This document shows, one piece after another, positions 4,874-29,609 of a DNA stretch of 60,361 bases. Source of the stretch: Candidatus Heimdallarchaeota archaeon (lineage in GTDB: Archaea > Asgardarchaeota > Wukongarchaeia > Wukongarchaeales > JBHIFL01); NCBI GenBank assembly GCA_046761065.1, contig JBHIFL010000016.1, forward strand, positions 1-60,361. The letters are read 5' to 3'. The notes under the pieces are model-generated. The model was given only the letters and a program-made list of their open reading frames with translations, ran no database searches and was not told the origin of the DNA. The position numbers and the translations under genes were made by a program. The number at the start of each line of letters is the position of its first letter. Within the stretch, counting starts at the first letter, position 1.

Positions 4874-5251
4874 CTAGAAAGCAGTTCTATGTGATATTAG
4901 CGCCTTAAACCCAGCTGGGTCTTTACATTCTAGTTTATCTTTAAAATAGATAATCCCATTGGATTTCACTGTAACAGCACTTCGCCAGAAAAATGGATGG
5001 ACAGCATGGACAAAAAAAAGCATCGAAATAAAACCAAATAGTATTAATATTCCGAGACTTACTTGGAAGGCCGGGTTGCTAGTCATATAATCAGTGAATA
5101 ACAATAAAATGGCAATAGACGTGATTGCACCAGATAGTGTTAGAAGAGCTGTAGCCTTTTCATCAGTACGGGAATTTAATTTTTCATTTACCTCATACAC
5201 ATCCATTAACATTCGATAACGATCATGAAATCGTTCATGTGATTCGACCAT
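4874..5251 (-). CDS. Pycsar-effector (DUF5706/PycTM)-like membrane protein, apparently C-terminally truncated
   Basis: RTDEKATALL followed by two TM helices, then P and GIIYF; third helix/TM absent; ATG at 5251. Confidence 0.5.
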   Translation of the reverse strand: MVESHERFHDRYRMLMDVYEVNEKLNSRTDEKATALLTLSGAITSIAILLLFTDYMTSNPAFQVSLGILILFGFISMLFFVHAVHPFFWRSAVTVKSNGIIYFKDKLECKDPAGFKALISHRTAF

Positions 5252-5523
5252 TTTGTGTTTGTCCTCTTTTTTCTGGAACAGATAGACAATCAAAATTAAA
5301 CATATTCAAAATCTTGAGAATGACATTCGGGAATTTTTATGTTACAATTAGCGAGAAGGCGCACATTTTCATATTTATATTGGTTTAATTGAAATAGATG
5401 AAATTTAAATTGAAAATGGGGATTTTCAGAAAGAATAAAAAGATTTTACTTAAAAAAGTTTAATTAGTTTAAGAATCTCCTAGATTGTCGGTTAAACAAC
5501 TTACAGAATGCTCATGAACAGTT

Positions 5524-7149: not shown

Positions 7150-7611
7150 TGAATCGTCTCTCCTGTTTTTTGGGAAGAAGGACCTATTATAATTACTGAT
7201 TTGTTTTATCAATATATTTCAAATACTAATCTTAATGTGTTCTAGGATAACGTGTCAAGCCAGTAAATAAATTCGAGTCGCGATTTTTAGAGAACCCAAA
7301 GCCGGTAAAACTTGAACTCATAGAAAGAATTGAAAAGGCGGATTAAAAACCCATTCCAAGGTTATATCATGTTTTACACCAAAAAAGTTAACTTTTAGTA
7401 AACGAATTTGATGATTGTGTTGCAAAGGTTTATGAATGAAGTAATATGTAATGGGGTAAATACGAGTACAATTACGTATACATGGCAATATATCGATTGA
7501 TATTTGGATTTCCATGACCAGAATTGGACTTTCGTTTCCTTGAGTCTTCAACACATGAGCTCAAGATTTTATCGATTGATGGATTTAAAAAAGCAAGTCT
7601 ATTTGTGAATA

Positions 7612-10518
7612 ATGATGAATGAAAGTTCAAGAATAAGAATTAGATGTCTTTCACTCTTCCTTATAGCTTTAGTAATAGTAATGCTACTCGTTCCAAAGCC
7701 CCCTTGTATTCAGGCTGAAGAACAGACTCCTATGGACTCCAAGAATAACGGTTTGAATTTTGTTTCCTTAGATAATAATTGGACGTCTGCTGAAGAGTTA
7801 ACACCTGGGGTTAATTATACCAGAACCATAACTTCATTCGATCCAGTAAACTATTGGAAGGTGTTCGCTAATTTTACTCAGCTAGTTAAAGCGGAGATTT
7901 GGTTATTGCAATGGGTAGAACTAACTAATCCCAATTACTATGATTTCGACCTTTTCATTTATGATCAGTATCATAATGAGCTTAATTCATCTACAAGTTC
8001 AAGCAATTATGAAGTGGTGTCAACTGTAGCTACGGTTTCTGCTTGGTATTATATAGAGGTTCATCAATATTCAGGCTTCGGTCCCTATCTACTTACTGTT
8101 GAAATCACAGAAAGTGATAAAACAAACGATAATTATTGGTGGAATGCGATTCCTATTGATATTGGAACCTATACCTATTCTGGATCCCTAGATATTATTA
8201 ATGATTCAATAGATTGGTTTTCACTCGAGCTAAATCCGACAGAGATCCTTAAAGTCAACATTACACGTTCGAATGCCCAAATAGATATTGCTTGTGGAAT
8301 TTATGATGAAGAACAAAACCTCCTTGCTAGATCAATTGAAATAAATGATACAGAAGTAGCCAGTGCCGTAGCGTACGCTCACGGTGTTTATTATCTGGAA
8401 ATAATGGTTATTCAAGGTGCGGGCGCCTATACCTTAAATATAGAGGTTACAAGTGGTGGTGAAATAGACGATTATTGGTGGGCTTACCCCAAGCCCATTA
8501 TGGCAGGGAATCATTCAGGAAGTCTAGATCTTGGGGGATCAGACCCTTCAGATTGGTTCATCTTTCAACTGCAACCTGCTGAGATTGTACAGATTGAGAT
8601 CACCTTTCCAAATACACAACTAGACTTAGATGCAAGAATTTATAACCATGATCTTCAGCTCCTTGACGAATCAGCGGGTTATGAAGGACAAGAAAAGATC
8701 TCAACGGTGGCTACAAGACCTGAGATCTATTATTTAGAGCTGGAGGCTATTTGGGGGGGCGGAAACTACACTTTTTCACTACAAATCACCCCTCCCACAC
8801 CGATTTCTCCGGGGATGTATCTAGGTAACCTTGATACGAACACGGGGCGTGATAAAATGTGGTTCACCTTTCATCTCAGTTCGAACAAAGTGGCGAAGGT
8901 ACGTGTTAAATTTCCTAGCAATCAAACGAACATTGATGTTCATCTATACACTTTTCATGGTGAACTTAAGCACGTCGATAGCTCAATTGGGAACGATGAT
9001 ACTAAAGAGGTCTTTGGTCTTTCTTTTACACCTAAAACATGGTACCTCTTGGTAATAGCTCGTTGGGGTGCAAGTAACTACTCTTTGACCCTCAATAGTG
9101 TTCCAGTAAATCTAATCGGACCAGGCTATCACTTGGGTATCCTGAATGAGTCGAACCAAGAGGTATGGTATGGGATTGAACTTCAACAAGGGGACTGTTT
9201 AATGGCAAGCTTGTACTCTAATAGAACCGATTATGATATGGAATTCTACTCTACGACTGGTTCTTGGCTTGTCGGATCATATTTAGGGCAAGGGCAATTA
9301 GAAAAAGTGCAAGGGATCGCCCAAACGTCAGGTGTTTATGGAATACGAATTTTCAGGTATACAGGAGCCGGGCTCTATAAGGTGTTAATGACAATTGCAC
9401 ATCCAGAGTTGATTACTCCTGGCAACTATTCGGGTTTATTGAATGCATCTTCTCCCAAAATAATATACAAGGTTGAACTTCAACAAAACGATAAGATCAT
9501 TGCTCGTATCACCACACCAATCAGTACCAATTTGAATATGGAACTATTTAGCCCAAATGGTACGTGGGTTGCAGGTTCGTTTAAGCCCCGTGGTTACATC
9601 GACGAGGTCTCAGGTGTGGCACAGATCACAGGAACTTTCTTTCTCTGTATCACATGGGAGAGTGGGAGTGAGGATTACGAATTAAACCTTAATGTGCAAC
9701 CAGATTCCCCTCCCCTTTCAGACTTTGCAGGGGGTTCTCCTCAGACCGCTCGAAAAATTATTCCTGGGAGATATTATGATGCCTTAGATGATATCATAGA
9801 TCGACATGATTACTACGCCCTCTTATTAGAATCGGGAGATATTTTACATGTGAAAGCAAATGGGTGGACTCCCCCAGTTGACTTTGATCTCGAAGTATTG
9901 GCTCCAGACCTCTCACTTGTTCAAGGGTCCTGGGACACGACCCCCTATGAAACAGTTGAAATTACAGCAAAATCTAGTGGAATCCATTATTTACATCTAT
10001 TCAGTGTACAGGGTAGTGGTCCATATACTATAGAAGTACGTAACAAGGCGGGTATTTCTCCCATTCCAGATCAAGCGGGTAATAATGTTAATTCTGCACA
10101 AACCATCCAACCAGGTGTCTATAATGAATATTTAAGTATAAAATATGATTCAGATGATTATTATCGTATTGAATTAGAGATGGGAGACAATGTGACAATC
10201 TTAATTCGTGGTTGGAATGCCTCCACAGCGGATTTTGAACTCCAAGTCCTCAATTCGACGTTTGGCATCTTAAACACCTCTTCTGGAATCGGTTCAGAGG
10301 AACAAGTCACATTTATTGCACAAACTACAGAAACCTTCTATATACGCGCCTTTAGCATCATTGGAAATGGCTGGTATACATTGGAGCTATACATAAACCC
10401 AACTAAGAGCACAATAACAACTCGAGAAATGGGAAATTTAATATTACAACTTACTGGCGGAGGATTAGTTCTTGTCTTAGTCTTTTGCTTTAGTTGGAAA
10501 AAACGGCAAAAAGGTTAG
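7612..10518 (+). CDS. Surface protein with about 8 tandem PPC (pre-peptidase C-terminal)-like beta repeats and a C-terminal TM anchor
   Basis: Signal peptide; repeated D-[W/Y]-[F/Y]...DxDLx(L/I)Y...S...E.V....G.YY..V....G.G.Y.L units; TM plus KKRQK tail. Confidence 0.8.
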   Translation: MMNESSRIRIRCLSLFLIALVIVMLLVPKPPCIQAEEQTPMDSKNNGLNFVSLDNNWTSAEELTPGVNYTRTITSFDPVNYWKVFANFTQLVKAEIWLLQWVELTNPNYYDFDLFIYDQYHNELNSSTSSSNYEVVSTVATVSAWYYIEVHQYSGFGPYLLTVEITESDKTNDNYWWNAIPIDIGTYTYSGSLDIINDSIDWFSLELNPTEILKVNITRSNAQIDIACGIYDEEQNLLARSIEINDTEVASAVAYAHGVYYLEIMVIQGAGAYTLNIEVTSGGEIDDYWWAYPKPIMAGNHSGSLDLGGSDPSDWFIFQLQPAEIVQIEITFPNTQLDLDARIYNHDLQLLDESAGYEGQEKISTVATRPEIYYLELEAIWGGGNYTFSLQITPPTPISPGMYLGNLDTNTGRDKMWFTFHLSSNKVAKVRVKFPSNQTNIDVHLYTFHGELKHVDSSIGNDDTKEVFGLSFTPKTWYLLVIARWGASNYSLTLNSVPVNLIGPGYHLGILNESNQEVWYGIELQQGDCLMASLYSNRTDYDMEFYSTTGSWLVGSYLGQGQLEKVQGIAQTSGVYGIRIFRYTGAGLYKVLMTIAHPELITPGNYSGLLNASSPKIIYKVELQQNDKIIARITTPISTNLNMELFSPNGTWVAGSFKPRGYIDEVSGVAQITGTFFLCITWESGSEDYELNLNVQPDSPPLSDFAGGSPQTARKIIPGRYYDALDDIIDRHDYYALLLESGDILHVKANGWTPPVDFDLEVLAPDLSLVQGSWDTTPYETVEITAKSSGIHYLHLFSVQGSGPYTIEVRNKAGISPIPDQAGNNVNSAQTIQPGVYNEYLSIKYDSDDYYRIELEMGDNVTILIRGWNASTADFELQVLNSTFGILNTSSGIGSEEQVTFIAQTTETFYIRAFSIIGNGWYTLELYINPTKSTITTREMGNLILQLTGGGLVLVLVFCFSWKKRQKG

Positions 10519-17060: not shown

Positions 17061-18314
17061 TTAATGAAGCAGATAGGCGGCTAAGGGGATGATCTCCCGC
17101 AGGTCCTTCCCCATCTCACGCTTGAACAAGCCTCTGAAGGACTGCTCCTCGGGGATCCCGAAAAACCCGTGAATCGCTCGGAAGAACCATTCGTGCGGCC
17201 AGGGGAGCTCCTTCTCCGCACGCAGGTGCTGGAAGAAGGCGACAAGGCCCCCTGCCTTCACGAACGACGCGATCTCGTTGATCAGCCGTCGATGGGCAGC
17301 ATGGGGGCAAAACTGGAAGAGTTGATTCACCAGGACCATGTTGCATTCGCCCACCAGGTCTTCCAGCTGGCTGGGCAGCGGGTGGGAGTAGTCCACGACG
17401 CGCCACTCGAGGCGCGGGTATAACCGTCTTTGCTCTGCAAACACCGCGAGGTTCCGTTCCGCGACCCGCAGCTGAAACAAGTTGTCACTTGCTCCGACGA
17501 TTTCCGCGTTAGGGGTAACCAACAGCAGTTCCTCAATGCCGCGACCGGTGCCACAGTTCAAGTCCAAGAGTTTCGTCGGGATCACCTGTTTGACGGCAGC
17601 GGCGATGACGGCCATGCGGGGAATGACCAGGCTCGGGTTCATGAGGTAGCTGTCGGTGAGCGGGCCCAGCTGGTCGGGGCGGTCATCCAAGGTAGCCGGC
17701 TGCGTCCCCGTTTTCAGGGCGTCTGGGACGAACCGGGAGATGATCCGATCGAAGAGGGTGAACACGACTTTGTAGGGTTTGGCCTCCTCGAGCCACCTGC
17801 GGTCCTTTGGTAAGAGCCCGTACTGTTGTTCGGTTTGAGGTTCCTTGTGACTTATCTCGAAAGGAGAAATATCTCTTAGTGTAGCCACGCCTTTTGTATG
17901 AGTAACCAAGCTTGTACTTGGCTTGATACTACTTTTATCTTCTGCACTCGGGATCTGTTTTTGTTGTTTGGGCAGGATTACGGTGTGAAACTCTCTTTCT
18001 CTCTTTTTCAAAACCCCTTTCCACGTGAGAAAATTCAGGAGATCCTCCAGCATCGCTTCGTGCTTCCATTCCTTTTCGAAGAGGATTTCCTTTGTGGTCC
18101 TGCCCTCACGAGCCAGTTCCAGAATGTTATGATCGAGACAGAAATCCATCCCCTTCTCTTCGGAATACCGAAAAAAAACAGGAATAAATGACTCAGTAAT
18201 CTCCCTAAGTTGCTTTGCGCCAATCCGTTCTTCGATGATCTTGAGATCTCCCACCTCTTTCAGAAATGAGAAAATTGATTTTACCGCCTTCCCTTTTTTG
18301 CCGATGATGGACAT
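17061..18314 (-). CDS. Class I SAM methyltransferase-like protein with N-terminal winged helix, copy A
   Basis: LLDLNCGTGRG motif I, FVKAGGLV; wHTH-like EGRTTKEIL..MLEDLLNFLTWKGVL; ATG at 18314. Confidence 0.75.
   Translation of the reverse strand: MSIIGKKGKAVKSIFSFLKEVGDLKIIEERIGAKQLREITESFIPVFFRYSEEKGMDFCLDHNILELAREGRTTKEILFEKEWKHEAMLEDLLNFLTWKGVLKKREREFHTVILPKQQKQIPSAEDKSSIKPSTSLVTHTKGVATLRDISPFEISHKEPQTEQQYGLLPKDRRWLEEAKPYKVVFTLFDRIISRFVPDALKTGTQPATLDDRPDQLGPLTDSYLMNPSLVIPRMAVIAAAVKQVIPTKLLDLNCGTGRGIEELLLVTPNAEIVGASDNLFQLRVAERNLAVFAEQRRLYPRLEWRVVDYSHPLPSQLEDLVGECNMVLVNQLFQFCPHAAHRRLINEIASFVKAGGLVAFFQHLRAEKELPWPHEWFFRAIHGFFGIPEEQSFRGLFKREMGKDLREIIPLAAYLLH
17070..17810 (-). repeat. 741-bp GC-rich inverted repeat, arm 1 (pairs with 21566-22306)
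   Basis: Boundaries read directly (ccaaaggaccg...tatctg). Main and shadow ORF translations are identical in both arms, implying nucleotide identity including synonymous sites. Confidence 0.95.
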
Positions 18315-18678
18315 GTAATCCACCCTTTTTTTGTACCAGAAGATAATCGCAAAATGAATTTCGTTTTTCCTTAATTAATGAATTTTACAAGTACACCTTT
18401 TATACTTCTCTTTTTAACGACATTTTTGTCGCATGGATATATGACGACCATCATGGCTTAATCAGCTTGTGCGCCTTAGCCCCCCCGATACGATGTTCAT
18501 ATTGAAGTGTTGTTGTCACATTCCTGACTTTGACTTTTATGGTTGTATATACAATATTAATTATCAAAATTATAAGGTTACATCACGATCATATTGTATA
18601 ATGTTACGTACAGGGATATACAAATTTTCTTTGGTATTATTATCCAATATTCAGGAATTAGTCAATAAATATATTCCA

Positions 18679-19206
18679 TTAGTATTCTATTCCTAGTCTT
18701 GGCCCAATCCCATGAGTTGAGAAGGGATGTTTCACAAGGCGCATCTCAGTGATCAAATCTGCTCGTTCCAAAAGTTTCGGATGCATCCTCACCCCGGTTA
18801 AAATTATCTCAATATTGCTACTCTTATTGTCAAGCAGCTGAATTACGTCATTCACATCAATGATAGAATGCTCAATGGCCATTCCAATTTCATCAAGAAT
18901 CACTATATCATACTTCCCCTCCATTATGATCTTTTTGGCAAACTCTAAACCTTCTTGCCCCATCTTTATGTCTATCTCAGTGGCCTTTGTAACAAGGTCT
19001 GGGCGTCCAAATTGTGTGATCTCAAATAGTCCACTTGTTTTTACCGCATGAAGCTCTCCATAATCATATCCTTTCATGAACTGAATCATGTGAACTCGAA
19101 GGCCACGCCCAACAGCTCTGAAAGCCAACCCCAGAGCTGCTGTTGTCTTGCCCTTGCCTTGCCCAAAATATATTTGAATCAAACCTTGCTTTAATCGTGG
19201 TTTCAT
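18679..19206 (-). CDS. cobO: Cob(I)alamin adenosyltransferase, CobA/CobO/BtuR type
   Basis: GQGKGKTTAALGLAFRAVGRG, QFMKG, ILDEI, ILTG, ADLITEM..KHPF..G...GIEY. Confidence 0.93.
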   Translation of the reverse strand: MKPRLKQGLIQIYFGQGKGKTTAALGLAFRAVGRGLRVHMIQFMKGYDYGELHAVKTSGLFEITQFGRPDLVTKATEIDIKMGQEGLEFAKKIIMEGKYDIVILDEIGMAIEHSIIDVNDVIQLLDNKSSNIEIILTGVRMHPKLLERADLITEMRLVKHPFSTHGIGPRLGIEY

Positions 19207-19235
19207 TCCGTTCCCTCTTAGTGATTTAGTTAGTT

Positions 19236-20192
19236 CTATTTAGGTTTGAACAATTGCCTTGTCGCAGTTAAAAGGCGGTTTGCACCTTCATACACATCAA
19301 TTTCTTTATTAAAAACTTGCAAAACAAGGGATTCCAATAGATTGTTCTTCTGAGCACTTATACCCACAAGCTCTTTGAATCGATTTTCGACAGCTTGAAG
19401 AATTCTTTGTTCGATTCTCTTCTGTCGCTTTTCTTGAAAAAGACTAGTTAATTCCAAGTGTCTGCGGTGAGCCTCTATTTCTGAGAATAATTCTAAGGTT
19501 CCTTTATCTTGAGTAGTTATCATTTTTAAAACTGGGGGTCTCCATCCCGTTTGATGAGTTCTCATATCTAGCATTGACTCAATTATTCGGAGGGTTGTGT
19601 CTGCTCCTTCAAGATCAGCTTTATTGATCACAAAGATATCTGCTATGTCATGAATCCCTCCTTTGAATGCTTGGATCGCATCACCAGCTCTAGGCATTAG
19701 GACAACTACAACAGTGTCAGCAAGGTGCTGGATCTCAATATCTGCCTTTGTGCTCTCTGCGGTTTCTATGATAACTAAATCCTTTCCAAATGCTTCATAC
19801 AATGATATAATGTCATTTATGCATCTAAAAAGACCACTTGCTCCCTTTCTGGTAGCTAAACTTCTAATAAAAACGTCTGGGTTAAAGGTACTCATGCGCA
19901 TTCTATCCCCAAGAAACGCGCCCCCTGAAAGGGTGCTAGATGGGTCTATTAAGATGATCCCAGTTGAATAGTTCGTTTTATTGAGTTCCTGAACAAGTGA
20001 ATTAATCAAAGTGCTCTTACCAGTTCCTACAGGTCCCGTAAAACCTATAATGTAGGATTCTTTTCGTGATGGGAGGAGTTGATTGCTGATTTGTCGCATC
20101 CAACTTGGGTTTGTCTCAACAAGGGTAATTGCTTTTGCTAGTGCTTGGGGATCACCCTGATGCAATCGACTGACCAGGGAATCAATTTTCAA
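19236..20192 (-). CDS. meaB: MeaB/ArgK G3E GTPase (mutase chaperone)
   Basis: LAKAITLVE, GPVGTGKST, DPSS..SGGAFLGDRMRM, FIRS, INKAD. Confidence 0.9.
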   Translation of the reverse strand: MKIDSLVSRLHQGDPQALAKAITLVETNPSWMRQISNQLLPSRKESYIIGFTGPVGTGKSTLINSLVQELNKTNYSTGIILIDPSSTLSGGAFLGDRMRMSTFNPDVFIRSLATRKGASGLFRCINDIISLYEAFGKDLVIIETAESTKADIEIQHLADTVVVVLMPRAGDAIQAFKGGIHDIADIFVINKADLEGADTTLRIIESMLDMRTHQTGWRPPVLKMITTQDKGTLELFSEIEAHRRHLELTSLFQEKRQKRIEQRILQAVENRFKELVGISAQKNNLLESLVLQVFNKEIDVYEGANRLLTATRQLFKPK

Positions 20193-20203
20193 TAAAGCCT
20201 CTC

Positions 20204-20626
20204 CTAATCAGTAGACTCAATGGACATTTTCTCAAAAAAATTCAGGATATAACCCACAATTTGTTTCGGAGGAGTGCCCGGGCCAAAAATTTCGGCCACT
20301 CCGAGTTGCTTAAGCATTTTGATCTCTTTGTTTGAAGTTATTGCCCCTCCGACAATGAACAACCGATCATAGATTCCTCTTTCTTTTGCTTTTTGCATTA
20401 TCTTAGGTATGTATGTCATATGAGTTCCATCGAGGATAGAGATCCCTATACAATCCGCATCCTCTTGTATAGCCGCTTCGATAATCTCCTCAGGAGTTCT
20501 AAAAAGGCCAACATAAATTACTTCCACCCCAGCATCTCGCAAAGCTAATGATACAACTTTGGCTCCTCTATCATGGATATCAGTTCCCGTTTTAGCCATT
20601 AAAAATCTAATTTTTTTGGAATGCAT
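20204..20626 (-). CDS. Cobalamin-binding subunit of an acyl-CoA mutase (no adjacent large subunit)
   Basis: [40 protein letters not shown]. Confidence 0.9.
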   Translation of the reverse strand: MHSKKIRFLMAKTGTDIHDRGAKVVSLALRDAGVEVIYVGLFRTPEEIIEAAIQEDADCIGISILDGTHMTYIPKIMQKAKERGIYDRLFIVGGAITSNKEIKMLKQLGVAEIFGPGTPPKQIVGYILNFFEKMSIESTD

Positions 20627-21109
20627 CCCATTTCACTCTGCAACTTTGTTTTTTAATTTTTTATAGAGTGTCAGTGTATCAGTGTTTGAATTCAGAGATC
20701 CCGCCTTATCAGAATATATTAGGGTTTATGATACTTTTACCATCATAAGGAATGTCGTGAAATACGCTTTTTGTTAATTTAACAGTTCAGTTTGACTTGA
20801 TCTACCTTTGAAATACTTCAATCACATTTAGGACATATATCAATTCAGTTTCCATAGGTTCATACTCAGAAACTTTACATTCACAACCTACTTTAATCCT
20901 ATTCTTGCTTTCCCAATATGGCTAAAAGAAAATTTGAAAGAACTGGTGAGTGTTTGGGAGGATATTTGCTTTTTTATTAGGGATTGGGGTTACATTTAAT
21001 AAATATAAATTTCTTTGAGAATTATAACTTCTTCATATGGCATCCAATAATTAGAGAAAAACGAAATTCGCTTTGCGATTATTTTCTGATCCAAGAAAGG
21101 GTGGATCGC

Positions 21110-22315
21110 ATGTCCATCATCGGCAAAAAAGGGAAGACGGTAAAACCAATTTCTTTATTCCTGAAAGAGGCGGGAGATCTCAAGATCATCGAAGAACGGA
21201 TTGGCGCAAAACACCTTAAGGAGGTTACTGAGTCCTTTATTCCTGTTCTTTTTGGGTACTCCGAAGAGAAGGGGATGGATTTCTGTCTCGATCACAACAT
21301 TCTGGAACTGTGCCGGGAGGGCAGAACCACAAAGGAGATCCTCTTTGAAAAGGAATGGAGGCACGAAGCGATGCTGGAGGATCTCCTGAATTTTCTCACG
21401 TGGAAGGGGGTTTTTAAAAAGAGAGGAAGAGAGTTCCAATCGCTGATTCGACCGGGAAAAGAAAAATCATTCTCCAAGATAGGAATTGAAGGAGTAATCT
21501 CACAAAGCCTTGACGTAACAGCTCTGGGATTGGGTTATCAAGAAAAAAAGCCAATCGGGCTCATGCCAAAGGACCGCAGGTGGCTCGAGGAGGCCAAACC
21601 CTACAAAGTCGTGTTCACCCTCTTCGATCGGATCATCTCCCGGTTCGTCCCAGACGCCCTGAAAACGGGGACGCAGCCGGCTACCTTGGATGACCGCCCC
21701 GACCAGCTGGGCCCGCTCACCGACAGCTACCTCATGAACCCGAGCCTGGTCATTCCCCGCATGGCCGTCATCGCCGCTGCCGTCAAACAGGTGATCCCGA
21801 CGAAACTCTTGGACTTGAACTGTGGCACCGGTCGCGGCATTGAGGAACTGCTGTTGGTTACCCCTAACGCGGAAATCGTCGGAGCAAGTGACAACTTGTT
21901 TCAGCTGCGGGTCGCGGAACGGAACCTCGCGGTGTTTGCAGAGCAAAGACGGTTATACCCGCGCCTCGAGTGGCGCGTCGTGGACTACTCCCACCCGCTG
22001 CCCAGCCAGCTGGAAGACCTGGTGGGCGAATGCAACATGGTCCTGGTGAATCAACTCTTCCAGTTTTGCCCCCATGCTGCCCATCGACGGCTGATCAACG
22101 AGATCGCGTCGTTCGTGAAGGCAGGGGGCCTTGTCGCCTTCTTCCAGCACCTGCGTGCGGAGAAGGAGCTCCCCTGGCCGCACGAATGGTTCTTCCGAGC
22201 GATTCACGGGTTTTTCGGGATCCCCGAGGAGCAGTCCTTCAGAGGCTTGTTCAAGCGTGAGATGGGGAAGGACCTGCGGGAGATCATCCCCTTAGCCGCC
22301 TATCTGGCTTATTAA
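21110..22315 (+). CDS. Class I SAM methyltransferase-like protein with N-terminal winged helix, copy B
   Basis: Paralog of 17061-18314. ATG at 21110 by alignment with copy A. Identical C-terminal ~247 aa, different linker. Confidence 0.75.
   Translation: MSIIGKKGKTVKPISLFLKEAGDLKIIEERIGAKHLKEVTESFIPVLFGYSEEKGMDFCLDHNILELCREGRTTKEILFEKEWRHEAMLEDLLNFLTWKGVFKKRGREFQSLIRPGKEKSFSKIGIEGVISQSLDVTALGLGYQEKKPIGLMPKDRRWLEEAKPYKVVFTLFDRIISRFVPDALKTGTQPATLDDRPDQLGPLTDSYLMNPSLVIPRMAVIAAAVKQVIPTKLLDLNCGTGRGIEELLLVTPNAEIVGASDNLFQLRVAERNLAVFAEQRRLYPRLEWRVVDYSHPLPSQLEDLVGECNMVLVNQLFQFCPHAAHRRLINEIASFVKAGGLVAFFQHLRAEKELPWPHEWFFRAIHGFFGIPEEQSFRGLFKREMGKDLREIIPLAAYLAY
21566..22306 (+). repeat. 741-bp GC-rich inverted repeat, arm 2
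   Basis: Reverse complement of 17070-17810. Confidence 0.95.
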
Positions 22316-22559
22316 GATTGTAAGTAAAAACTTTTAAATTTTAATATAAAAGTATTAATTGACTCCCTTTAAATATTACAGATAATCTCCTATATAATGA
22401 AAATGAGCCATTTTGAATCTTGTTTCAGTTATATTGTCATATACAAGGAGATTCAGCATGGAACTGAGCAAAAACTCAAAAGGGTGGTAAAAAAATTATA
22501 TACTTCGATAGTAAAGAGAACTGATAATATGATATCCATAATATGGAGTGGTAAAACCA

Positions 22560-22922
22560 ATGCGGATCGAAATTATTGCAAAAATGCCCCATGCTTTTGT
22601 CCATGAATGCAAGAAATGTAACTTCACACGACTTACAGGTACTAAAGATTTCAGACAGACCCAATTTGATACTTTCCCTCAGGATGTAAAACAAAACATG
22701 GAACGAACCCTTAAAATCCTCTCTATGCTCAATCAGGACTTTCCAGAGGGCACCATCAACGTCCATGTTACAAATCCTCTGAATTTACGGGTTGGATGGC
22801 GACTTTGGAAAATGAAGGAAAAAGACCCTATCGTGCTGATTAATGAACAGGTTGCCTTTAGAGGAGAAATTCCAGAATATATGGACTTGAAAAAATATCT
22901 CCAATCGATTCCAACCACTTAG
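22560..22922 (+). CDS. Thioredoxin-fold-like CxxC protein of the CstA/ArsA cluster
   Basis: Beta-strand IEIIA, then CKKC, helix, INVHV, cis-Pro-like DPIVLINEQVAFRGEIP. Confidence 0.6.
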   Translation: MRIEIIAKMPHAFVHECKKCNFTRLTGTKDFRQTQFDTFPQDVKQNMERTLKILSMLNQDFPEGTINVHVTNPLNLRVGWRLWKMKEKDPIVLINEQVAFRGEIPEYMDLKKYLQSIPTT

Positions 22923-23295
22923 CTTTTTGTTATGTTCTATCCGAAAATACTGTTGCCTACTTTGAAATGGTTTAACAATTTCATGATTTTAAATCACCTC
23001 AAAAACTTTTTATCTGATTTCCATTCTTCTTGATGGCATATTTCTAGTTTAAGGGGAGATTCGGAAAAAGTATTGTCGCTTAATAGATTCTTATTCGTAT
23101 TCAGGCAAAATCGAATCCAATCCATAGTAAATCATTGAATAGCCAAATGTTTGATGAAAAAACTTTTAGGGAGATTTCTTTCTGCGCTATATTTAAATTT
23201 AGATCTTCCAAATAAGTCATTTCGCATCTAGATAAATTTGGCTTACTGTAGAAAAACAAAGATAAAGGACTACTTAAACGAATACACACAAAAAA

Positions 23296-23619
23296 GTGGT
23301 AATAATGGCTTTCTATAAAAAAATGGAAGAAAAATCAGAGGAAAAACCAGAAAAGAAAAAAGAAAAAAAGGTTGGAGTGAAAGGCGCACTTCGGGACCTA
23401 ATCTATGGTGGAGCAATGCATGGTCTTGTTCGTCAAGCCCTAAAGACACGTATGTATTTAGAACATCTCTTTATGCTCATTACCATGGGTGATATGATGG
23501 GCGTACCGATCTTACCACCATACTATTCCTTACGACTGGTCCCTTATGTTGTTCCTCAAATAACTACGTGGAAACGACGAATGCTCAAAGAAAGGGATAT
23601 CACAGACTCGTTTTATTGA
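23296..23619 (+). CDS. Small CstA/ArsA-associated helical protein, paralog 1 (start probably ATG 23305)
   Basis: HLFML..GD.MGVPILPPYYSLRLVPY...WKRRMLKERD motif, shared with 25719 and 29319. Confidence 0.75.
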   Translation: MVIMAFYKKMEEKSEEKPEKKKEKKVGVKGALRDLIYGGAMHGLVRQALKTRMYLEHLFMLITMGDMMGVPILPPYYSLRLVPYVVPQITTWKRRMLKERDITDSFY

Positions 23620-23655
23620 TATAGAGTAAAGAAACACTATATGGGGCATTTTATC

Positions 23656-24657
23656 ATGAGTCAAACATACAGGGACTTTTTCCAACAAAATACAGACGTT
23701 TCGGTTCTAATTTTCGCAGGGAAAGGCGGTCTTGGAAAAACGACATTCGCTGCAGCAACAGGTCTTTACATGGCAAAACAAGGGAAGAAGGTATTAGTCT
23801 TTAGTACAGATCCTCAAGCATCGTTATCAGACATTTTTGAACGTGACATTTTTGGCAAGGGAGAAATCGAAATCCGCACGAATCTGGGTGTAATGGAGAT
23901 TGATGCAGATAAACGCATTGCTGCGTACCAAGACGAAATTCGAGAACGGATTAAGGAAATGTACGGGCTCGTCGAGGTTCCTCCAGAAATCGAAGAATAC
24001 ATCGCAAGTGCTTCTGCAGAACCAGCAATGCATGAAAGTGCGTGTTATGACGCTATGGTAGACTTGGTAGCTGAAGGAAAGTATGATTTATACATTTTTG
24101 ACATGCCTCCTTTTGGTCACGGTGTCCGGATCATCGCAATGGCAGATGTTTTGACTGCATGGATTGAGAAAATGGCAGAAAGCCGCGAAAAAAGCAAAGA
24201 GTATGATCGGGTAGCTTCAACCTTGCGAGGAGGAACGAAGGAAGATAAAGCGACCGAAGATGCCATTATGGAAGAACTCGAAGAGATTCGTGATAAATTG
24301 AGTTCCTTTACCAAGATGCTTCAAGATAAGAAACGCACGGGCTTCTTTATGGTGTTGATTCCGGAAAAGATGGCGATTCTGGACACCCAGCGGGCTCTTG
24401 ATATGTTTGGCCAATTCGGCATTAGATTGACAGGGATCCTTGTCAATATGGTCTATCCTCCTGAGCTTCTCCATGATGAAGGCTTATCTCCCTACTTGAA
24501 GAATCGAATAACCATGCAACAGAACTACATGAAGGAGATCAACCAAATCTTTGGCAAAGACTTGAAAGGAATTTGCCCTATGTTTGATCGCGAACCAAAA
24601 GGTCTGGACAGACTAGACAATGTAGCGGAAGCGTTATTCTCTTGGACGAAAAAATAG
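23656..24657 (+). CDS. ArsA/GET3/TRC40-family ATPase, single-domain subunit 1
   Basis: GKGGLGKTT, STDPQASL, DMPPFGH, IPEKMA, LVNMV. Confidence 0.9.
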   Translation: MSQTYRDFFQQNTDVSVLIFAGKGGLGKTTFAAATGLYMAKQGKKVLVFSTDPQASLSDIFERDIFGKGEIEIRTNLGVMEIDADKRIAAYQDEIRERIKEMYGLVEVPPEIEEYIASASAEPAMHESACYDAMVDLVAEGKYDLYIFDMPPFGHGVRIIAMADVLTAWIEKMAESREKSKEYDRVASTLRGGTKEDKATEDAIMEELEEIRDKLSSFTKMLQDKKRTGFFMVLIPEKMAILDTQRALDMFGQFGIRLTGILVNMVYPPELLHDEGLSPYLKNRITMQQNYMKEINQIFGKDLKGICPMFDREPKGLDRLDNVAEALFSWTKK

Positions 24658-24670
24658 GAGGAACAAAAGA

Positions 24671-25696
24671 ATGCCAGAAAGCTTGGAGGATTTTGTGAAG
24701 AACAAGCCAGATCTGAAATACCTCTTCTTCGGAGGTAAAGGGGGAGTTGGGAAAACCATCGGAGCGGCGGGAGTCGCTTATTATTTCTCAGAAATCTTGG
24801 GTAAACGAACGTTACTTGCTTCACTCAACCCCGTCCACTCCCTCTGTTCCTTATTTAGACAGGACCTCGCTGGGGGAGATCTGGTACAGCTCAAAGGACC
24901 AGCTAATCTCTATTGCTGCGAAGTGGAGATCCAAGACCAAGTAGAGAAGTTCAAGAAGGAAATCGAACAGAAGATCGCTCAATTTCTGAAATATGCTGAC
25001 ATTCCCATCAAGACGCGGGACTTCGTGGACATAGCTACGACAAACCCTGCATTTGAAGAAAGTGCCCAATTTAATAAAATGATCGATATGATGATCGAAC
25101 TTGGGGAGAGCGGAGAGTACGATATCTTAGTGTTCGATTGTGCCGCTGTGGCCAATGCCATTAGACTTATTGGGCTTTCTAAGATCTACGGCTTATGGTT
25201 GAATCGTATGATCAAATCTAGAGAGGAAGCATTGAGTTTACGGGTCAAACTAAGCTTCCGAAAAGAGAAAATTATGAGAGAAATAGCTAAAGACCCTCTA
25301 ATGGCAGATTTAATAAAAACTAAGGAGACAATGGATAAAGCAAGGATTTTGCTTAGAGATCCTAAAAAAACCGCCTTCTTTTTTGTTACAACTCCCCTTG
25401 CGCTCCCAATTTCTGTCGTGACTCGCTTTATCTCAATGGTGAAAGAATTCGATATTCCTGTAGGGGGAGTTTTAGTGAACATGATCATTCCAGAAGATGC
25501 AGTCCGTGGTCAAGTCAGTGAATATCTAAAGAATAAATACATAGAACAACAAGATTATCTATCCCAAATTAAAATGGACCTCGGAGACCTGGTTCGTGGA
25601 ACGATCCCCCTTTTTGAGTCTGAGATCCAAGGGGTTAAGGACATCTCAAAAGTTGCTGAGGCTCTTGCGGTAGAGCTCAAGCTGCATGGCCTCTGA
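24671..25696 (+). CDS. ArsA/GET3/TRC40-family ATPase, single-domain subunit 2 (degenerate switch motifs)
   Basis: GKGGVGKT; SLNPVHSL in place of STDPAH; DCAAVAN in place of DTAPTGH; AGGAGG RBS. Confidence 0.9.
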   Translation: MPESLEDFVKNKPDLKYLFFGGKGGVGKTIGAAGVAYYFSEILGKRTLLASLNPVHSLCSLFRQDLAGGDLVQLKGPANLYCCEVEIQDQVEKFKKEIEQKIAQFLKYADIPIKTRDFVDIATTNPAFEESAQFNKMIDMMIELGESGEYDILVFDCAAVANAIRLIGLSKIYGLWLNRMIKSREEALSLRVKLSFRKEKIMREIAKDPLMADLIKTKETMDKARILLRDPKKTAFFFVTTPLALPISVVTRFISMVKEFDIPVGGVLVNMIIPEDAVRGQVSEYLKNKYIEQQDYLSQIKMDLGDLVRGTIPLFESEIQGVKDISKVAEALAVELKLHGL

Positions 25697-25718
25697 ACAT
25701 TGATGACGTGGTGACATC

Positions 25719-25991
25719 GTGCCTGTCCGCCAGAAGCTGAACCAGTTTTTTTCAGCCCTTAAACAGATAATACTTGCTGCAGCTCTTGGTTCGCTCTATG
25801 AATATGAAGTGGAAATGAAAAAAGGGTATAATATACTGACCCTGGTTATCCTATTCGGTGACAGATATGGACTTCCAATTTTCCCAACATACTACCGTCT
25901 TCGAATCCTTCCTCATCTTATTGGTTGGTTCAGTTGGGTAGAGAAAGACCTTCTCGAAGAAAAAACCCTAACTAATCGCCTTAGTCATTGA
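25719..25991 (+). CDS. Small CstA/ArsA-associated helical protein, paralog 2 (divergent)
   Basis: LVILFGDRYGLPIFPTYYRLRILP aligns with paralogs 1 and 3; GGTGA RBS, GTG start. Confidence 0.7.
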   Translation: MPVRQKLNQFFSALKQIILAAALGSLYEYEVEMKKGYNILTLVILFGDRYGLPIFPTYYRLRILPHLIGWFSWVEKDLLEEKTLTNRLSH

Positions 25992-26253
25992 TTTTGATCA
26001 AAAACATCCTCAGAAACCACAGTTTCTGTAGAAAGTTGGTATTAACGACAACCTTTTTCTCATTAAATTGATTAGAGAGTGATTAATCCAGTTTTAGATG
26101 TATTATTTAGAGAGTTTTTCCTATTACTTACTCTACATCCTTTCTTCGCTCTAATTATTTAATTTTTCAGAATATTGACTATTCCAGCCCGATAACCAGA
26201 GATACAAATTTTTCTTCAATTAGTAGAACATTTAGAATAAAAAAATAATTAGT

Positions 26254-26278
26254 AAAAAAAAGAAAAAGAGAGAGAAAA
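26254..26278 (-). terminator. Oligo-U archaeal terminator downstream of cstA
   Basis: Pyrimidine/T tract on the minus strand about 20 nt after the stop codon. Confidence 0.45.
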
Positions 26279-26298
26279 TTTAGTTCAACTGGTTTGGT

Positions 26299-28080
26299 TT
26301 ACTTACCCGCCTCTGCAGGGGCCGCCTCAGCAACTACTTCGCCTTTTACTGCTGCTTTATAGCTCTCCCATGCATCTCTGATAACGAATAGTGCCAAGAT
26401 TACCAAGATTATTGCCAGGGTTCCTGAAATACTAGTCATAATCCTTGTAAATGTTGCACTATGACCCCATCTTGCGAAAAGCGCAGGCGTCTCTGCCATT
26501 CTTGCAAATGTGAAAGCATTCCATGCGGTTACGAGAAGTGCAAATATCGTAGTTACAATCATGAAGATCGCTGGAATACCAGTATATTTTGCACTCTTGC
26601 CCCTTCTTGCTAACCAGATGCTTACTAACATCAGTGTTAGGCCTGCCAGTAGCTGATTTGAGCCTCCGAACAGCATCCAGATTTCCTCATGTGCCTTCCA
26701 GTACGCTATTGATCCTGCAATGAGGACAACGATGAATGCTCCGATGTAGGTGTTTTTAACAAGTGGTCCGATCCCCGTTACCTCTCCTGTCACTTCAGCT
26801 AGTGAATACCGGCAAAATCGAACTGCTACTTGGGTAACTGAAGTTGTAAAGAGGATGAAGGTAAATGCTACAAAAGTCGTAACATAGAACGGCCCTCCTG
26901 GAAGGATTGCGTCAAGGATCGTTACTGCGCCACGAACTGTTGCTCCAACAAAAGCACCGGCCCAGATTGTCTCTACACGAGTTACTACCACATAGGAAGA
27001 GAGTGCCACCAGCGCAAGCATGCCTTCGGAAAGCATACTACCGGCGCCCACCGGGACCATGTCTGTTTCCGAATCTACCTGTTTCGCTGACCCACTTGAA
27101 CTCACCAACCCATGCCAGCCGCTGATGGCTCCACAGGCAAGTATCACAAACATCAACGGCCAAACTGCTTTAATAACTCCATCTGTCACTGCAAAGAGGT
27201 CTCCGATTACCGGGTATCCTTCTTTGGCTTCGGTCAGAACTGGAAGGGGTGTAGGTAGGATAGGTGTAAGAAGTGCTCCAATTGCTAGCATGATAATGAA
27301 GGCATAAGCCATGTAGAACGCTAAATAGTTACTGGGCTGCGTGTAGCTCCAGATAGGCAAGACGGCTCCGAGGAATACTAGAACAATAGTCAAAACCAAC
27401 ATGACTTCGAAGTGCCCTGCCCAAGATATCCCGCCTTCTTCCGGGGACCTGAAGAGCCAGCTGCCAAGAAAGAAAATAATGATCCAGCTGACAATTCCGA
27501 TGAGTGTCACGCGGACGATGTCCATTTTTAGCTTGTACAACATCCATCCCATTGCTATACCAATCCCAAAGAGTCCTAGGGTTGGAAGTATTGTTGCGGG
27601 AAATACGTTAAGGAACAAAGAGCCGAACAGGATGAATACTGCGCACACCATAAGCAAATAGATGAAGATGAACCATGTTAGGATCGTCCTTGCTCGGGGA
27701 GAGATGATTTCATACGTTAGGGGTCCATGCGACTTTCCTTCCTCTTTAACTGAAACCGCGATTGAACTGTAATCATGAACCCAGCCGATGAAGAAGTTTC
27801 CAAGAAGTATCCAAAGCAAAGCAGGCAACCATCCATAGGCAAGCGCTAGAAACGGTCCAAGAAGCGGTCCAAGACCTGTTATTGTCTTAAATTGAAATCC
27901 GAATAGAATATATCGGCTTGCTGGGAAAAATTCTGCCCCATCCATATACATATGGGCAGGTGTTGTTCGTGAAGGTTCTGATTCAATGATATTTTTATCG
28001 AACCACTTGGCATAGAACTGATAGCCGATGAAATAAAGCACTAGACCAATCACTATAAAGTATGCTGGATACAATGCCAT
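26299..28080 (-). CDS. cstA: Carbon starvation protein A (CstA) family permease
   Basis: TPAH.YMDG.EF.P, GFQF..ITGLGP..GP, GWVHDY, ACGAISGWHGLVSS, GSMLSEG, IWMLFGGSNQLLA. Confidence 0.92.
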   Translation of the reverse strand: MALYPAYFIVIGLVLYFIGYQFYAKWFDKNIIESEPSRTTPAHMYMDGAEFFPASRYILFGFQFKTITGLGPLLGPFLALAYGWLPALLWILLGNFFIGWVHDYSSIAVSVKEEGKSHGPLTYEIISPRARTILTWFIFIYLLMVCAVFILFGSLFLNVFPATILPTLGLFGIGIAMGWMLYKLKMDIVRVTLIGIVSWIIIFFLGSWLFRSPEEGGISWAGHFEVMLVLTIVLVFLGAVLPIWSYTQPSNYLAFYMAYAFIIMLAIGALLTPILPTPLPVLTEAKEGYPVIGDLFAVTDGVIKAVWPLMFVILACGAISGWHGLVSSSGSAKQVDSETDMVPVGAGSMLSEGMLALVALSSYVVVTRVETIWAGAFVGATVRGAVTILDAILPGGPFYVTTFVAFTFILFTTSVTQVAVRFCRYSLAEVTGEVTGIGPLVKNTYIGAFIVVLIAGSIAYWKAHEEIWMLFGGSNQLLAGLTLMLVSIWLARRGKSAKYTGIPAIFMIVTTIFALLVTAWNAFTFARMAETPALFARWGHSATFTRIMTSISGTLAIILVILALFVIRDAWESYKAAVKGEVVAEAAPAEAGK

Positions 28081-28135
28081 TTTAGTTTTTCCTCCATTTT
28101 TAAATATTTTGAGTCAATATAAAGTTAATTAAAAG

Positions 28136-28150
28136 CTTATAAGTCTTTCG
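28136..28150 (-). promoter_or_regulatory. Putative BRE/TATA promoter of cstA
   Basis: Minus strand CGAAAGA-CTTATAAG about 55 nt upstream of the ATG; GGAGG RBS at 28091-28095. Confidence 0.45.
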
Positions 28151-28508
28151 TAGAAAAAATTTACTAAAAACAATTTTCCTTTCTCTATTTTTTTATAAAT
28201 TAAGTCTTTTTGTTTCTATTCTAGGGATTATTCTCAAGAGTATATGATTTTTAGAATTGATATTGGAATTGGCAAATCTGTTTGTTTCCACATCGTTAAG
28301 TATGGATTGACTGATAATCGGTACAAGTTGGAGCTTTCCTGAATATTCCTATTACTTAAATTAAGTATAATCAGATCGATTCGTAGAGACATTCGGAAAC
28401 GAGCTGATTAATGAAAATTCTCTTCCTTATTCTAAAATTAAGATGCCTTGAATAATAATTTGTAAAATGAAATATATACGAATTCAGGATGTTCGTAGTC
28501 TACTATAT

Positions 28509-29213
28509 TCATATCGATGAACGTACATATCGATGAACGCGTTTCCCTAATGTTTGAAAAAGAGCTGTAGACTGAGGTATATTCGGTAATTGTGCTTTAC
28601 AGGTCACCAAAATGTTAGGTGAGTCTTCAGAAATCGAAACTCTATCAAGGGTGTCAGCTGAATGTTCGACCGTGTCTTGGACTTCCTTCTTTCTAAGGAC
28701 ATAACGGGCAAACTCTCTATCCTTTGTGAAAACTAAAAATTCAGATGTATAGCCAAAATCTTTTGTCGAGAACTCAATCATCTCGCTAGTCTCTGGTCTT
28801 CTGACTTTCACTCGCCCTTCCAAGATTTTTGCGGTAATTGGGACAAGTTCTAAGGTTGGAACCGTCCTTAGGTCTCGAACATCCCCTTGAAACATCAGCA
28901 AATCCTCATCTGTATGAAAGTATCTCAGGATATAGTGGAATGCATTCTCCCGATCCATCGTAGACATGATTACGTTAACTTTTCTGAAGGGGGCCTCTTT
29001 CTTGGGGAATGCCATCATTCTGAAAAGGTTATGTCCAATTCTTCCTCCGATTTTTTCGGAGTGGGGAGCAAGACTATGTGCCACTCGATCCCATGCTTCC
29101 CTCAATAAGCGTTGATTCCACCTAGAGCCGATCATCAGAACTATGATGAAAATCAAAGTCACTACTATAAAGATAAAAGGGCCAATCTGCTCTAATCTCA
29201 AGAAAACCACCAT
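28509..29213 (-). CDS. Single-pass membrane protein, CCDC47/DUF1682-like pattern
   Basis: N-terminal TM, then G..N..L...W......L......G, and V.V.(M/L)...REN.F..I...F....D.L pattern. Confidence 0.55.
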   Translation of the reverse strand: MVVFLRLEQIGPFIFIVVTLIFIIVLMIGSRWNQRLLREAWDRVAHSLAPHSEKIGGRIGHNLFRMMAFPKKEAPFRKVNVIMSTMDRENAFHYILRYFHTDEDLLMFQGDVRDLRTVPTLELVPITAKILEGRVKVRRPETSEMIEFSTKDFGYTSEFLVFTKDREFARYVLRKKEVQDTVEHSADTLDRVSISEDSPNILVTCKAQLPNIPQSTALFQTLGKRVHRYVRSSI

Positions 29214-29318
29214 TTATACATTATTGGGTTCGTTAGGTAGAATAACACATATATTTTCGGTTCTCGGCGATAGAAAAGGCTTAATTAATAGAGAAGTAAA
29301 AAGGATAGTTGGTATGAA

Positions 29319-29609
29319 ATGACCACAGATAAAGAGCGAACTAGTCCAAAAAGGCGTAAGGGCGGTATTGGGAGAGCGCTCAAGGACATTTTCTATGGAT
29401 TGGCTGTTCATGATATGGTTCGCTATATGCTTAAGGTGAAAATGAATCTGGACCATCTATTCATGGTTTTAATGATGGGAGAAACAATGGGGGTTCCGAT
29501 CCTCCCCCCATATTACACTTTGCGTCTTATGCCCTATGTTGTGCCATATATCCCGGTTTGGAAGCGACGGATGCTCAAAGAACGAGATCTAACAGATATG
29601 TTCTATTGA
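29319..29609 (+). CDS. Small CstA/ArsA-associated helical protein, paralog 3
   Basis: HLFMVLMMGETMGVPILPPYYTLRLMPYVVPYIPVWKRRMLKERDLTDMFY, closely similar to paralog 1. Confidence 0.8.
   Translation: MTTDKERTSPKRRKGGIGRALKDIFYGLAVHDMVRYMLKVKMNLDHLFMVLMMGETMGVPILPPYYTLRLMPYVVPYIPVWKRRMLKERDLTDMFY

Follow-up and report, generated by a model that had tools for sequence, protein, structure and literature searches.

The locus and its genes

The subject of this study is a group of eight genes at positions 22,560 to 29,609 of a 60,361-nt stretch of DNA (the window; contig JBHIFL010000016.1 of assembly GCA_046761065.1) from Candidatus Heimdallarchaeota archaeon, an Asgard archaeon represented by a metagenome-assembled genome (MAG) of 4.4 Mb that is 91% complete with 8% contamination. 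An earlier reading of the bare sequence, hereafter the original prediction, had placed here a CstA permease, two GET3/ArsA-type ATPases, three small proteins, a CCDC47-like protein and a CxxC protein, and all eight open reading frames (ORFs) of that layout are indeed present in the ORF list at the positions and on the strands claimed. The results presented below identify the locus as an Asgard-archaeon copy of a conserved cstA-cstX-(cstY)-arsA' module. The core of this module has been known since a genome comparison of 2010, and the locus adds to it a new Asgard member with the full accessory set. Its genes are the following (lengths in amino acids, aa; end coordinates count the stop codon):

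22560..22922, + strand: accessory protein with a CxxC motif (CKKC), probably thioredoxin-like; 120 aa from the ATG at 22560 (120-124 aa, a GTG opening the ORF at 22548)
23296..23619, + strand: CstX paralogue 1 (DUF7990), just upstream of ArsA1; family profile E-value 4.6e-46
23641..24657, + strand: ArsA1, 338 aa, putative catalytically competent ATPase subunit of the Get3/ArsA fold; PF02374 E-value 2e-67, TIGR00345 220.8 bits
24671..25696, + strand: ArsA2, 341 aa, paralogous subunit with an intact P-loop and a degenerate catalytic site; PF02374 E-value 3e-53, TIGR00345 184.3 bits
25719..25991, + strand: CstX paralogue 2, a divergent DUF7990 protein; family profile E-value 2.8e-12
26299..28080, - strand: CstA-family permease, 593 aa, ~14 hydrophobic segments by hydropathy; PF02554 E-value 1e-106
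28509..29213, - strand: CstY, 234 aa, one N-terminal transmembrane (TM) helix and then a domain of CCDC47 fold, by AlphaFold2 model and Foldseek
29319..29609, + strand: CstX paralogue 3 (DUF7990), divergent from cstY; family profile E-value 2.1e-42

The CstA gene and both single-domain ArsA homologues fall within 4.5 kb, and the genes for CstX 1, ArsA1, ArsA2 and CstX 2 follow one another with gaps of 10-22 nt; an ATG at 23305 is a possible true start of CstX 1. The three CstX paralogues are 90-107 aa long and have in common the core G-[VL]-P-I-[LF]-P-x-Y-Y-x-L-R-[LI]-x-P, and their relatives bear the precomputed Pfam label PF25952, that is, DUF7990. With a set of Pfam models searched without PF25952, the five proteins other than the permease and the ATPases (the three small ones, the 234-aa protein and the CxxC protein) gave no match at E ≤0.01. 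The permease itself scores 168 bits against the 1188-bit cut-off of the equivalog for the E. coli pyruvate/H+ CstA, and its substrate need not be pyruvate or peptides. A sequence search of solved structures returned no CstA homologue.

The module is conserved in bacteria and Asgard archaea

Operons that combine cstA, cstX and a gene for an ArsA homologue were already described by Castillo & Saier (2010; PMC2963123, Int J Microbiol 2010:187373), and the locus is therefore not an uncharacterised system in the sense of an undescribed one, as the original prediction had supposed. The part of that article consulted here reports 26 bacterial and archaeal clusters in which cstA is found with ~330-aa single-domain ArsA homologues, a ~90-aa protein (CstX) in 24 of the 26, and a ~210-aa protein with a single transmembrane segment (CstY) in five archaeal clusters. 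The same part remarks on both adjacent paralogous ATPase pairs and the lack of ars genes, states that the trees of CstA, CstX and the ArsA homologue match one another, and proposes that CstA is energised by the ArsA homologue, to which CstX would link it. The 234-aa protein of the window, with its one N-terminal TM helix and its position beside cstA, fits CstY in size, a match made to the published description only.

The original prediction had staked itself on these genes occurring together in other genomes, and a survey of gene neighbourhoods confirmed that they do. A pattern scan of species-representative genomes located CstX relatives encoded at no fewer than 573 places, of which the best 80, all of them bacterial, made up the locus survey. 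These came from Thermodesulfobacteriota, Chloroflexota, Bacillota, Acidobacteriota, Rokubacteria, Actinomycetota and Pseudomonadota, and carried on one strand, in this order, cstA, X (one or two copies), ArsA1 and ArsA2. The ATPases were found in 79 of the 80 loci and cstA in 72 of the 73 with enough upstream DNA, while the first ATPase was of the ArsA1 type and the second of the ArsA2 type in every surveyed bacterial locus. In the phylum of the window, CstX was detected in 17 of 301 sampled genomes, and the full set including both ATPases was present together in eight of 20 fetched Asgard loci, with a ninth locus ending after X. Six families travel together, namely CstA, one to four copies of CstX/DUF7990, the ArsA1 and ArsA2 pair of Get3-fold ATPases, the CCDC47-fold CstY and a CxxC/UxxC protein. 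Taken over hundreds of species of Thermodesulfobacteriota, Chloroflexota, Bacillota, Acidobacteriota, Actinomycetota and archaea, the module is among the more widespread conserved clusters of putative function.

The individual CstX copies can also be followed from genome to genome. CstX 1 is 55-66% identical to the ArsA1-adjacent X in most of the aligned bacterial and Asgard loci (lowest 46%), extra divergent X copies accompany other Asgard and bacterial modules, and the divergent cstY|X pair seen in the window recurs in bacterial loci, for example L078, L050 and L020.

Actinomycetota have a variant composed of cstA, an X protein ending in Cys-Cys and a single ArsA. True members of the NCBIfam family NF041419 (cory-CC-star) were found in 15 of 251 sampled Actinomycetota genomes; they are 88 aa long where the ORF is clean, eight ORFs that the X profile also matched end in G-F-C-C, and in operons of the corynebacterial type the stop of X overlaps the start of ArsA. 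In all 13 fetched Actinomycetota genomes with matches, the CC-star gene is flanked by cstA and a single ArsA homologue. Because of this position, NF041419 is the corynebacterial CstX. Two of the X proteins of the window score 36.8 and 38.1 bits with this family, whose cut-off is 80; the three end in ...DSFY, ...RLSH and ...DMFY, and none contains a cysteine. The idea that CstX is a general partner of ArsA homologues, independent of CstA, was considered and rejected, as true cory-CC-star proteins too are encoded in cstA operons and the only exceptions are one bacterial locus (L050) and one contig of the same MAG (C109), both described below.

A catalytic and a degenerate ATPase subunit

Both ATPases exceed the 135-bit cut-off of TIGR00345 (GET3/ArsA/TRC40), and their active-site motifs were compared across 82 sequences of each type. 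ArsA1 of the window has the P-loop GKGGLGKTT, the switch I sequence STDPQASLSD and the switch II pattern D-x-P-P-x-G-H, in keeping with its family, which retains the P-loop, the switch I aspartate (S-x-D-P-Q-A-S-L) and the switch II P-x-G-H. The ArsA2 family likewise keeps the P-loop, but its switch I has Asn in place of Asp (S-T-N-P-V-H-S-L) and its switch II reads D-T-A-P-T-A-N-A-R-R, without Gly-His; in the window the corresponding sequences are SLNPVHSL and DCAAVANAIR. Both changes are present in 80 of the 82 ArsA2 rows, the other two being a gap and a copy with motifs of the ArsA1 type. Replacement of the equivalent aspartate of Get3 (D57) impairs hydrolysis and not ATP binding. Since ArsA2 has lost both the catalytic Asp and the switch II Gly-His, the pair should have a single catalytic site, and we infer from these motifs that the two subunits pair up as a heterodimer in which one site hydrolyses ATP and the other binds nucleotide. 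A distant precedent is the solved structure of Rv3679/Rv3680 (6BS3), in which two Get3-like ATPases are joined as a heterodimer.

In a quick tree of ArsA1 rooted with ArsA2 as the outgroup, the eight Asgard sequences formed one clade (Shimodaira-Hasegawa-like approximate likelihood ratio test, SH-aLRT, 98), apart from the 33 bacterial ones (95). This separation suggests that the ArsA1/ArsA2 duplication is old and predates the split between the Asgard and bacterial lines, and on this tree the Asgard copy appears to be no recent gift from the sampled bacteria. Relatives of ArsA2 with at least 90% identity are labelled Candidatus Hodarchaeota and Heimdallarchaeota.

Among solved structures the archaeal Get3 homologues 3ZQ6 (E 3e-52) and 3UG6 (E 4e-51) come closest, with E. 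coli ArsA (1F48) farther away (E 6.5e-30). Neither ArsA1 nor ArsA2 contains the zinc-binding CxxC dimerisation motif of Get3, which is also missing from some archaeal Get3 homologues (PMC6593721), and no invariant or nearly invariant cysteine was found in the alignments of 41 ArsA1 and 43 ArsA2 sequences. The insert between helices 7 and 9 is 32-33 aa long in ArsA1 and ArsA2, within a range of 28-33 residues that includes a CxxC-bearing Get3 homologue of the same genome, and residues of the LIVFMW group make up 12% of it in ArsA1, 34% in ArsA2 and 31% in the CxxC-bearing homologue. The latter is a 320-aa protein encoded on another contig (C15, L001:1465-2427), with the motif C-A-F-C and canonical switches, and probably serves as the housekeeping archaeal Get3. 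Contig C67 encodes a further homologue.

CstX as a likely partner of the ATPase

Several species encode CstX fused in frame to the N-terminus of ArsA1, giving proteins with PF25952 followed by PF02374 (P0135, of 414 aa, P0147, P0170, P0174 and P0176). A search for longer CstX relatives yielded no credible case of a CstX-CstA fusion. The same set of longer proteins held P0145, P0138 and about 25 similar proteins of ~309 aa, in which a C-terminal DUF7990 follows a long N-terminal part rich in Arg, Ala and Gly; these look like over-extended gene calls in high-GC genomes and not fusions.

The original prediction had suggested a complex prediction of the ATPase pair with each small protein. Run for ArsA1, ArsA2 and CstX 1, it lent the association weak support, with a score of 0.60 where the best control gave 0.29, runs that agreed in at least 66% of contacts and a partner with a predicted local distance difference test (pLDDT) value of at least 51. 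In calibration 58 of 80 solved complexes and two of 110 mismatched pairs attained the mark applied here, and at scores of 0.60 or below only seven of the 80 solved complexes did so, together with both of the passing mismatches. Alone, CstX gave a helical model of low confidence (pLDDT 63; predicted template modelling score, pTM, 0.26), as expected for a subunit that folds on its partner. Its best 19-residue Kyte-Doolittle window, at 1.3-1.7, is at or below the usual threshold for a TM segment and encloses a conserved Asp, a conserved Gly and several Pro residues. Because of the fusions, the tight coupling of the genes and the complex prediction, CstX is likely to bind the ATPase.

The conserved C-terminal pattern of CstX, W-K-R-R-M-L-R-E-[RK]-D, recalls what we take to be the Get3-binding helix of Get2, a resemblance that we treat purely as a lead. 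The RERR motif of that Get2 helix (R14-E15-R16-R17) is confirmed in PMC8530227. Neither the X profile nor the last 27 residues of CstX matched any sequence in the PDB.

CstY has the fold of CCDC47

The AlphaFold2 model of CstY is of good quality (pLDDT 87.4, pTM 0.82), and its top three PDB matches in Foldseek were all CCDC47 chains: 7tm3_4 (E 1e-10, TM-score 0.70), 9i78_4 (E 4e-9) and 6w6l_7 (E 1e-6). The next structural match was mycobacterial TtfA (6t84, E 5e-4). At the sequence level the Pfam CCDC47 model (PF07946) gave E 0.16 and 11.5 bits with the CstY of the window, against a cut-off of 27.7; across the CstY family 13 of 33 members match that model at E ≤1 and one passes the cut-off, with 38.4 bits. 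The label 'CCDC47-like' is thus borne out at the level of fold and superfamily, both by the model and by the matches of relatives to PF07946. Literature searches found no paper describing prokaryotic relatives of CCDC47.

The 234-aa CstY has few close relatives. Homologues occur in 30 of 301 genomes of the phylum, and a CstY homologue adjoins the module in nine of the 20 fetched Asgard loci, the ninth being the locus that ends after X. With a profile built from the Asgard homologues, CstY was also recognised in 13 of the 80 bacterial loci, mostly on the opposite strand just upstream of X, which is the same divergent arrangement as that of cstY and CstX 3 in the window. CCDC47-family genes are also found apart from the module. 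In the Asgard loci L111 (9596-10303), L112, L113 and L114 they have neither cstA nor X nor the ATPases next to them within ~10 kb, the gene in L111 encoding the member that passes the Pfam cut-off (38.4 bits), and in 16 genomes of the phylum that have CstY no CstX was matched.

An optional CxxC protein and the flanking genes

A tblastn search with the 124-aa form of the CxxC protein found no match in 100 loci. An iterated profile hidden Markov model that allowed read-through of TGA recovered 13 copies, from 12 bacterial loci and one near relative (L135). Each copy precedes cstA, lies between it and X, or closely follows ArsA2 on the opposite strand. The CxxC protein is thus a recurrent but optional part of the module. 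C17, C20 and P90 are invariant in the 13 sequences; Pfam matches are sub-threshold (Thioredoxin_3, E 0.0022; Thioredoxin_6, E 0.009; DUF1525, E 3e-5), and atlas leads score below 0.9. Of the thioredoxin-fold protein proposed by the original prediction, then, the CxxC motif and an invariant proline stand, and the fold itself is probable. The copy from a Rokubacteria MAG (L037:3023-3385) has an in-frame TGA at the position of the first cysteine, to read U-K-H-C, and is likely to be a selenoprotein form of the family.

Directly upstream of the module, two methyltransferase paralogues face outward (window positions 17061-22315). A 56-aa ORF called after cstY in the near relative L135 was tried as a further component and rejected, as it has no counterpart at this locus. 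The claim that ars genes are absent held for ArsB, ACR3 and ArsD, none of which matched on the contig of the window (C16), with matches elsewhere in the genome; arsR and arsC were not searched for.

A tentative model in which the ATPase drives or gates CstA

The reading that we favour, tentatively and at a little less than an even chance, is that a membrane-docked ATPase complex drives or gates the transport cycle of CstA. The heterodimer of ArsA1 and ArsA2 would combine a hydrolytic site with a nucleotide-binding one, CstX would bind this pair and dock it on CstA at the membrane, and CstY would act as a membrane-anchored accessory. ATP binding and hydrolysis would then drive or gate the CstA cycle, in the way that ArsA boosts ArsB. 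We are led to this reading by the ArsA-ArsB precedent, by the published co-evolution of the components and by the subunit-like character of CstX. ArsB is a secondary carrier that works alone and is more efficient with ArsA (PMC12415280). The first interpretation offered by the original prediction, an ATPase that energises CstA through small adaptors, accordingly gains some support from the CstX-ArsA1 fusions, the tight gene coupling and the weak complex score, although the idea as such is not new, being already present in the consulted part of PMC2963123. If true, the module would join ArsAB as the second example of a secondary carrier made ATP-assisted by an ATPase of the Get3/ArsA fold.

Several observations weigh against an ATPase that acts on CstA. 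Characterised CstA proteins are H+-coupled importers that require no ATPase. The complex prediction is weak, and a pass of this kind is, by its calibration, wrong in most cases unless the prior is high. The nearest structural relatives of CstY, CCDC47 and TtfA, are tied to membrane-protein biogenesis or transporter assembly and not to energy coupling, TtfA being an accessory factor of the MmpL3 transporter. Two loci carry X and ATPase genes with no cstA in view. In L050 (Chloroflexota, 5221-8538), the sole informative exception to cstA linkage in the bacterial survey, cstY, two X genes, ArsA1 and ArsA2 are present, and cstA is missing from 5.9 kb of upstream and 10 kb of downstream sequence. 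Contig C109 of the same MAG (L132:9680-10947) encodes a 98-aa DUF7990-like protein (profile E 2.4e-11) that ends in F-C-C, and its gene runs into the start of the one for a single ArsA homologue, whose motifs are canonical; the two genes come directly after those for a P-type heavy-metal ATPase and a CzcA-like pump, and no cstA is found in the 9.7 kb upstream, the contig ending ~0.9 kb downstream. This contig may be bacterial contamination. Literature searches found no later experimental work on the module beyond the genome comparison of 2010, and even in the precedent a direct ArsA-ArsB complex has never been shown (PMC12415280).

A role in biogenesis or quality control is a reading that we regard as somewhat unlikely. 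The Get3-fold pair would hold the hydrophobic segments of CstA (or of CstX), CstY would be a membrane receptor or intramembrane chaperone, and the module, instead of powering transport, would ensure the insertion, folding or assembly of CstA. Consistent with this, the ATPases are closer to archaeal Get3 (3ZQ6, 3UG6) than to E. coli ArsA (1F48), their insert is as long as that of the CxxC-bearing Get3 homologue, and CstY combines a CCDC47 fold with TtfA as its next match. CstX, moreover, has a moderately hydrophobic stretch near its C-terminus, as tail-anchored proteins do; this stretch, however, includes the conserved Asp, Gly and Pro and does not rise above the TM threshold, and a protein that several species fuse to the N-terminal end of ArsA1 is more readily seen as a subunit than as a client to be released. 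ArsA1 has a polar insert, with little more than a third of the LIVFMW content of that in the CxxC-bearing homologue, the CxxC of Get3 is missing from both ATPases, and CstA proteins that stand alone, that of E. coli among them, need no such machine. CstY, found with its own profile in only 13 of 80 bacterial loci, would not be a core part. The GET/PAT-like insertion machine of the original prediction is therefore upheld in the fold of CstY and undercut by the CstX-ATPase fusions, the missing CxxC and the presence of CstY in a minority of modules. A prokaryotic biogenesis device of this kind, with the two Get3-fold ATPases and a membrane protein of CCDC47 fold working together on a multipass permease, we consider unlikely. 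Our literature searches found no description of a functional link between relatives of the GET and PAT machineries in prokaryotes, and a biogenesis role, if true, would link relatives of these two eukaryotic machineries in Asgard archaea and bacteria.

The conserved non-catalytic site of ArsA2, with its intact P-loop, would suit a gate in which the ATPase pair and CstX sensed nucleotide or redox state and switched CstA on or off without powering it, the ArsA2 site serving as the sensor and the CxxC protein as the redox input. Thiol or selenol proteins do recur with the module (the CxxC/UxxC proteins and the CC-terminated X), and the consulted part of PMC2963123 ties characterised CstA transporters to carbon starvation. 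We nevertheless hold such a regulatory gate to be clearly unlikely: the analysis identified neither a sensor domain nor a known effector site, the CxxC protein is found in a minority of loci only, and turnover seems to matter, to judge by the strict conservation of the catalytic subunit ArsA1.

ArsD is a thioredoxin-fold protein with vicinal cysteines, and the recurrent CxxC/UxxC accessory could suggest an analogous hand-off, in which Cys/Sec proteins would deliver a thiophilic or thiol-bound cargo to the ATPase for passage through CstA, perhaps outward. Vicinal Cys-Cys ends are found in the actinobacterial X proteins and in the X of contig C109, which lies beside the heavy-metal ATPase and the CzcA-like pump, and ArsA does take its cargo from ArsD and pass it to ArsB (PMC12415280). 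A hand-off of this kind is very unlikely here, given that neither ATPase alignment has an invariant or nearly invariant cysteine, that the three X proteins of the window have no cysteine at all, that most modules lack the CxxC protein and that no ars or metal genes were found in the locus (arsR and arsC not having been searched for).

Finally, a classical arsenite/antimonite pump ATPase that lies near cstA by chance has a negligible probability and, beyond the Pfam domain name 'anion-transporting ATPase', is already contradicted by the scores (101.2 bits for ArsA1 and 69.6 for ArsA2 against the 650-bit cut-off of the TIGR04291 ArsA equivalog), by the form of the proteins (single-domain, ~340 aa, no conserved cysteines) and by the neighbourhood, which has no ars genes among those searched (ArsB, ACR3 and ArsD; arsR and arsC were not) and a linkage to cstA conserved across phyla. 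Nothing was found that links the locus to arsenic.

For the favoured reading, an ATPase acting on CstA, as for the alternatives, suitable organisms are at hand. Genetic tools exist for groups that have the three-gene corynebacterial form and for those that have the Thermococcus version named in PMC2963123, and with such tractable carriers the role of the module is directly testable.

Comparison with known systems

The ArsA-ArsB(-ArsD) system resembles the module in having an ATPase of the same fold with an intradimeric Walker A motif and two non-equivalent nucleotide sites, which assists a secondary carrier and is bound by a small partner protein, a part that would here fall to CstX. ArsA, however, is one fused chain of ~580 aa with a three-cysteine metalloid site, whereas the module has two separate chains with no conserved cysteine; its carrier is ArsB or Acr3 and its partner ArsD, where the module has CstA and a DUF7990 protein and no arsenic context. 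Get3/TRC40 is nearer in sequence, as 3ZQ6 and 3UG6 are the best matches among solved structures, TIGR00345 is passed and the insert has a Get3-like length. The module departs from it in its heteromeric pair with one apparently dead site, in the lack of CxxC, in the polar insert of ArsA1, in its permease operon and in the existence of a separate Get3 in the same genome. BagA/BagB of M. tuberculosis (Rv3679/Rv3680, 6BS3) are likewise paralogous ATPases of the Get3-like type, from adjacent genes and solved together as one complex, but the similarity to ArsA1 and ArsA2 is distant (E 4e-6 to 8e-6, over the N-terminal parts, with NCBIfam scores far below cut-off).

CstY shares with CCDC47, of the PAT complex and multipass translocon, and with TtfA a single TM helix at the N-terminus and, after it, an alpha/beta domain. 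At ~230 aa it is much shorter than CCDC47 (455 aa in chain 9i78_4), it is not known to be linked with Asterix, Sec61 or the ribosome, and, unlike CCDC47, it is tied to a CstA/ATPase module. The cory-CC-star proteins of NF041419 have the core G-x-P-x-x-P-x-Y-Y-x-L-x-L-x-P and a place between cstA and the ArsA homologue in common with CstX, and are set apart by the Cys-Cys end that the sub-cut-off X proteins of the window do not have.

The closest counterpart is the module of Castillo & Saier. As set out in the consulted part of their article, it comprises a CstA permease, a ~90-aa CstX, ~330-aa single-domain ArsA homologues that are sometimes two adjacent paralogues and, in archaea, a ~210-aa single-TMS CstY; its clusters have no ars genes, and the hypothesis of coupling from ATPase through CstX to CstA is identical. 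The present locus differs in its Asgard host, in its three CstX paralogues and in a cstA gene that converges with the ATPase operon instead of leading it. To what that part of the article describes, our analysis adds the degenerate ArsA2, the CstX-ArsA1 fusions, the bacterial occurrence of CstY and its CCDC47 fold, and the CxxC/UxxC accessory protein.

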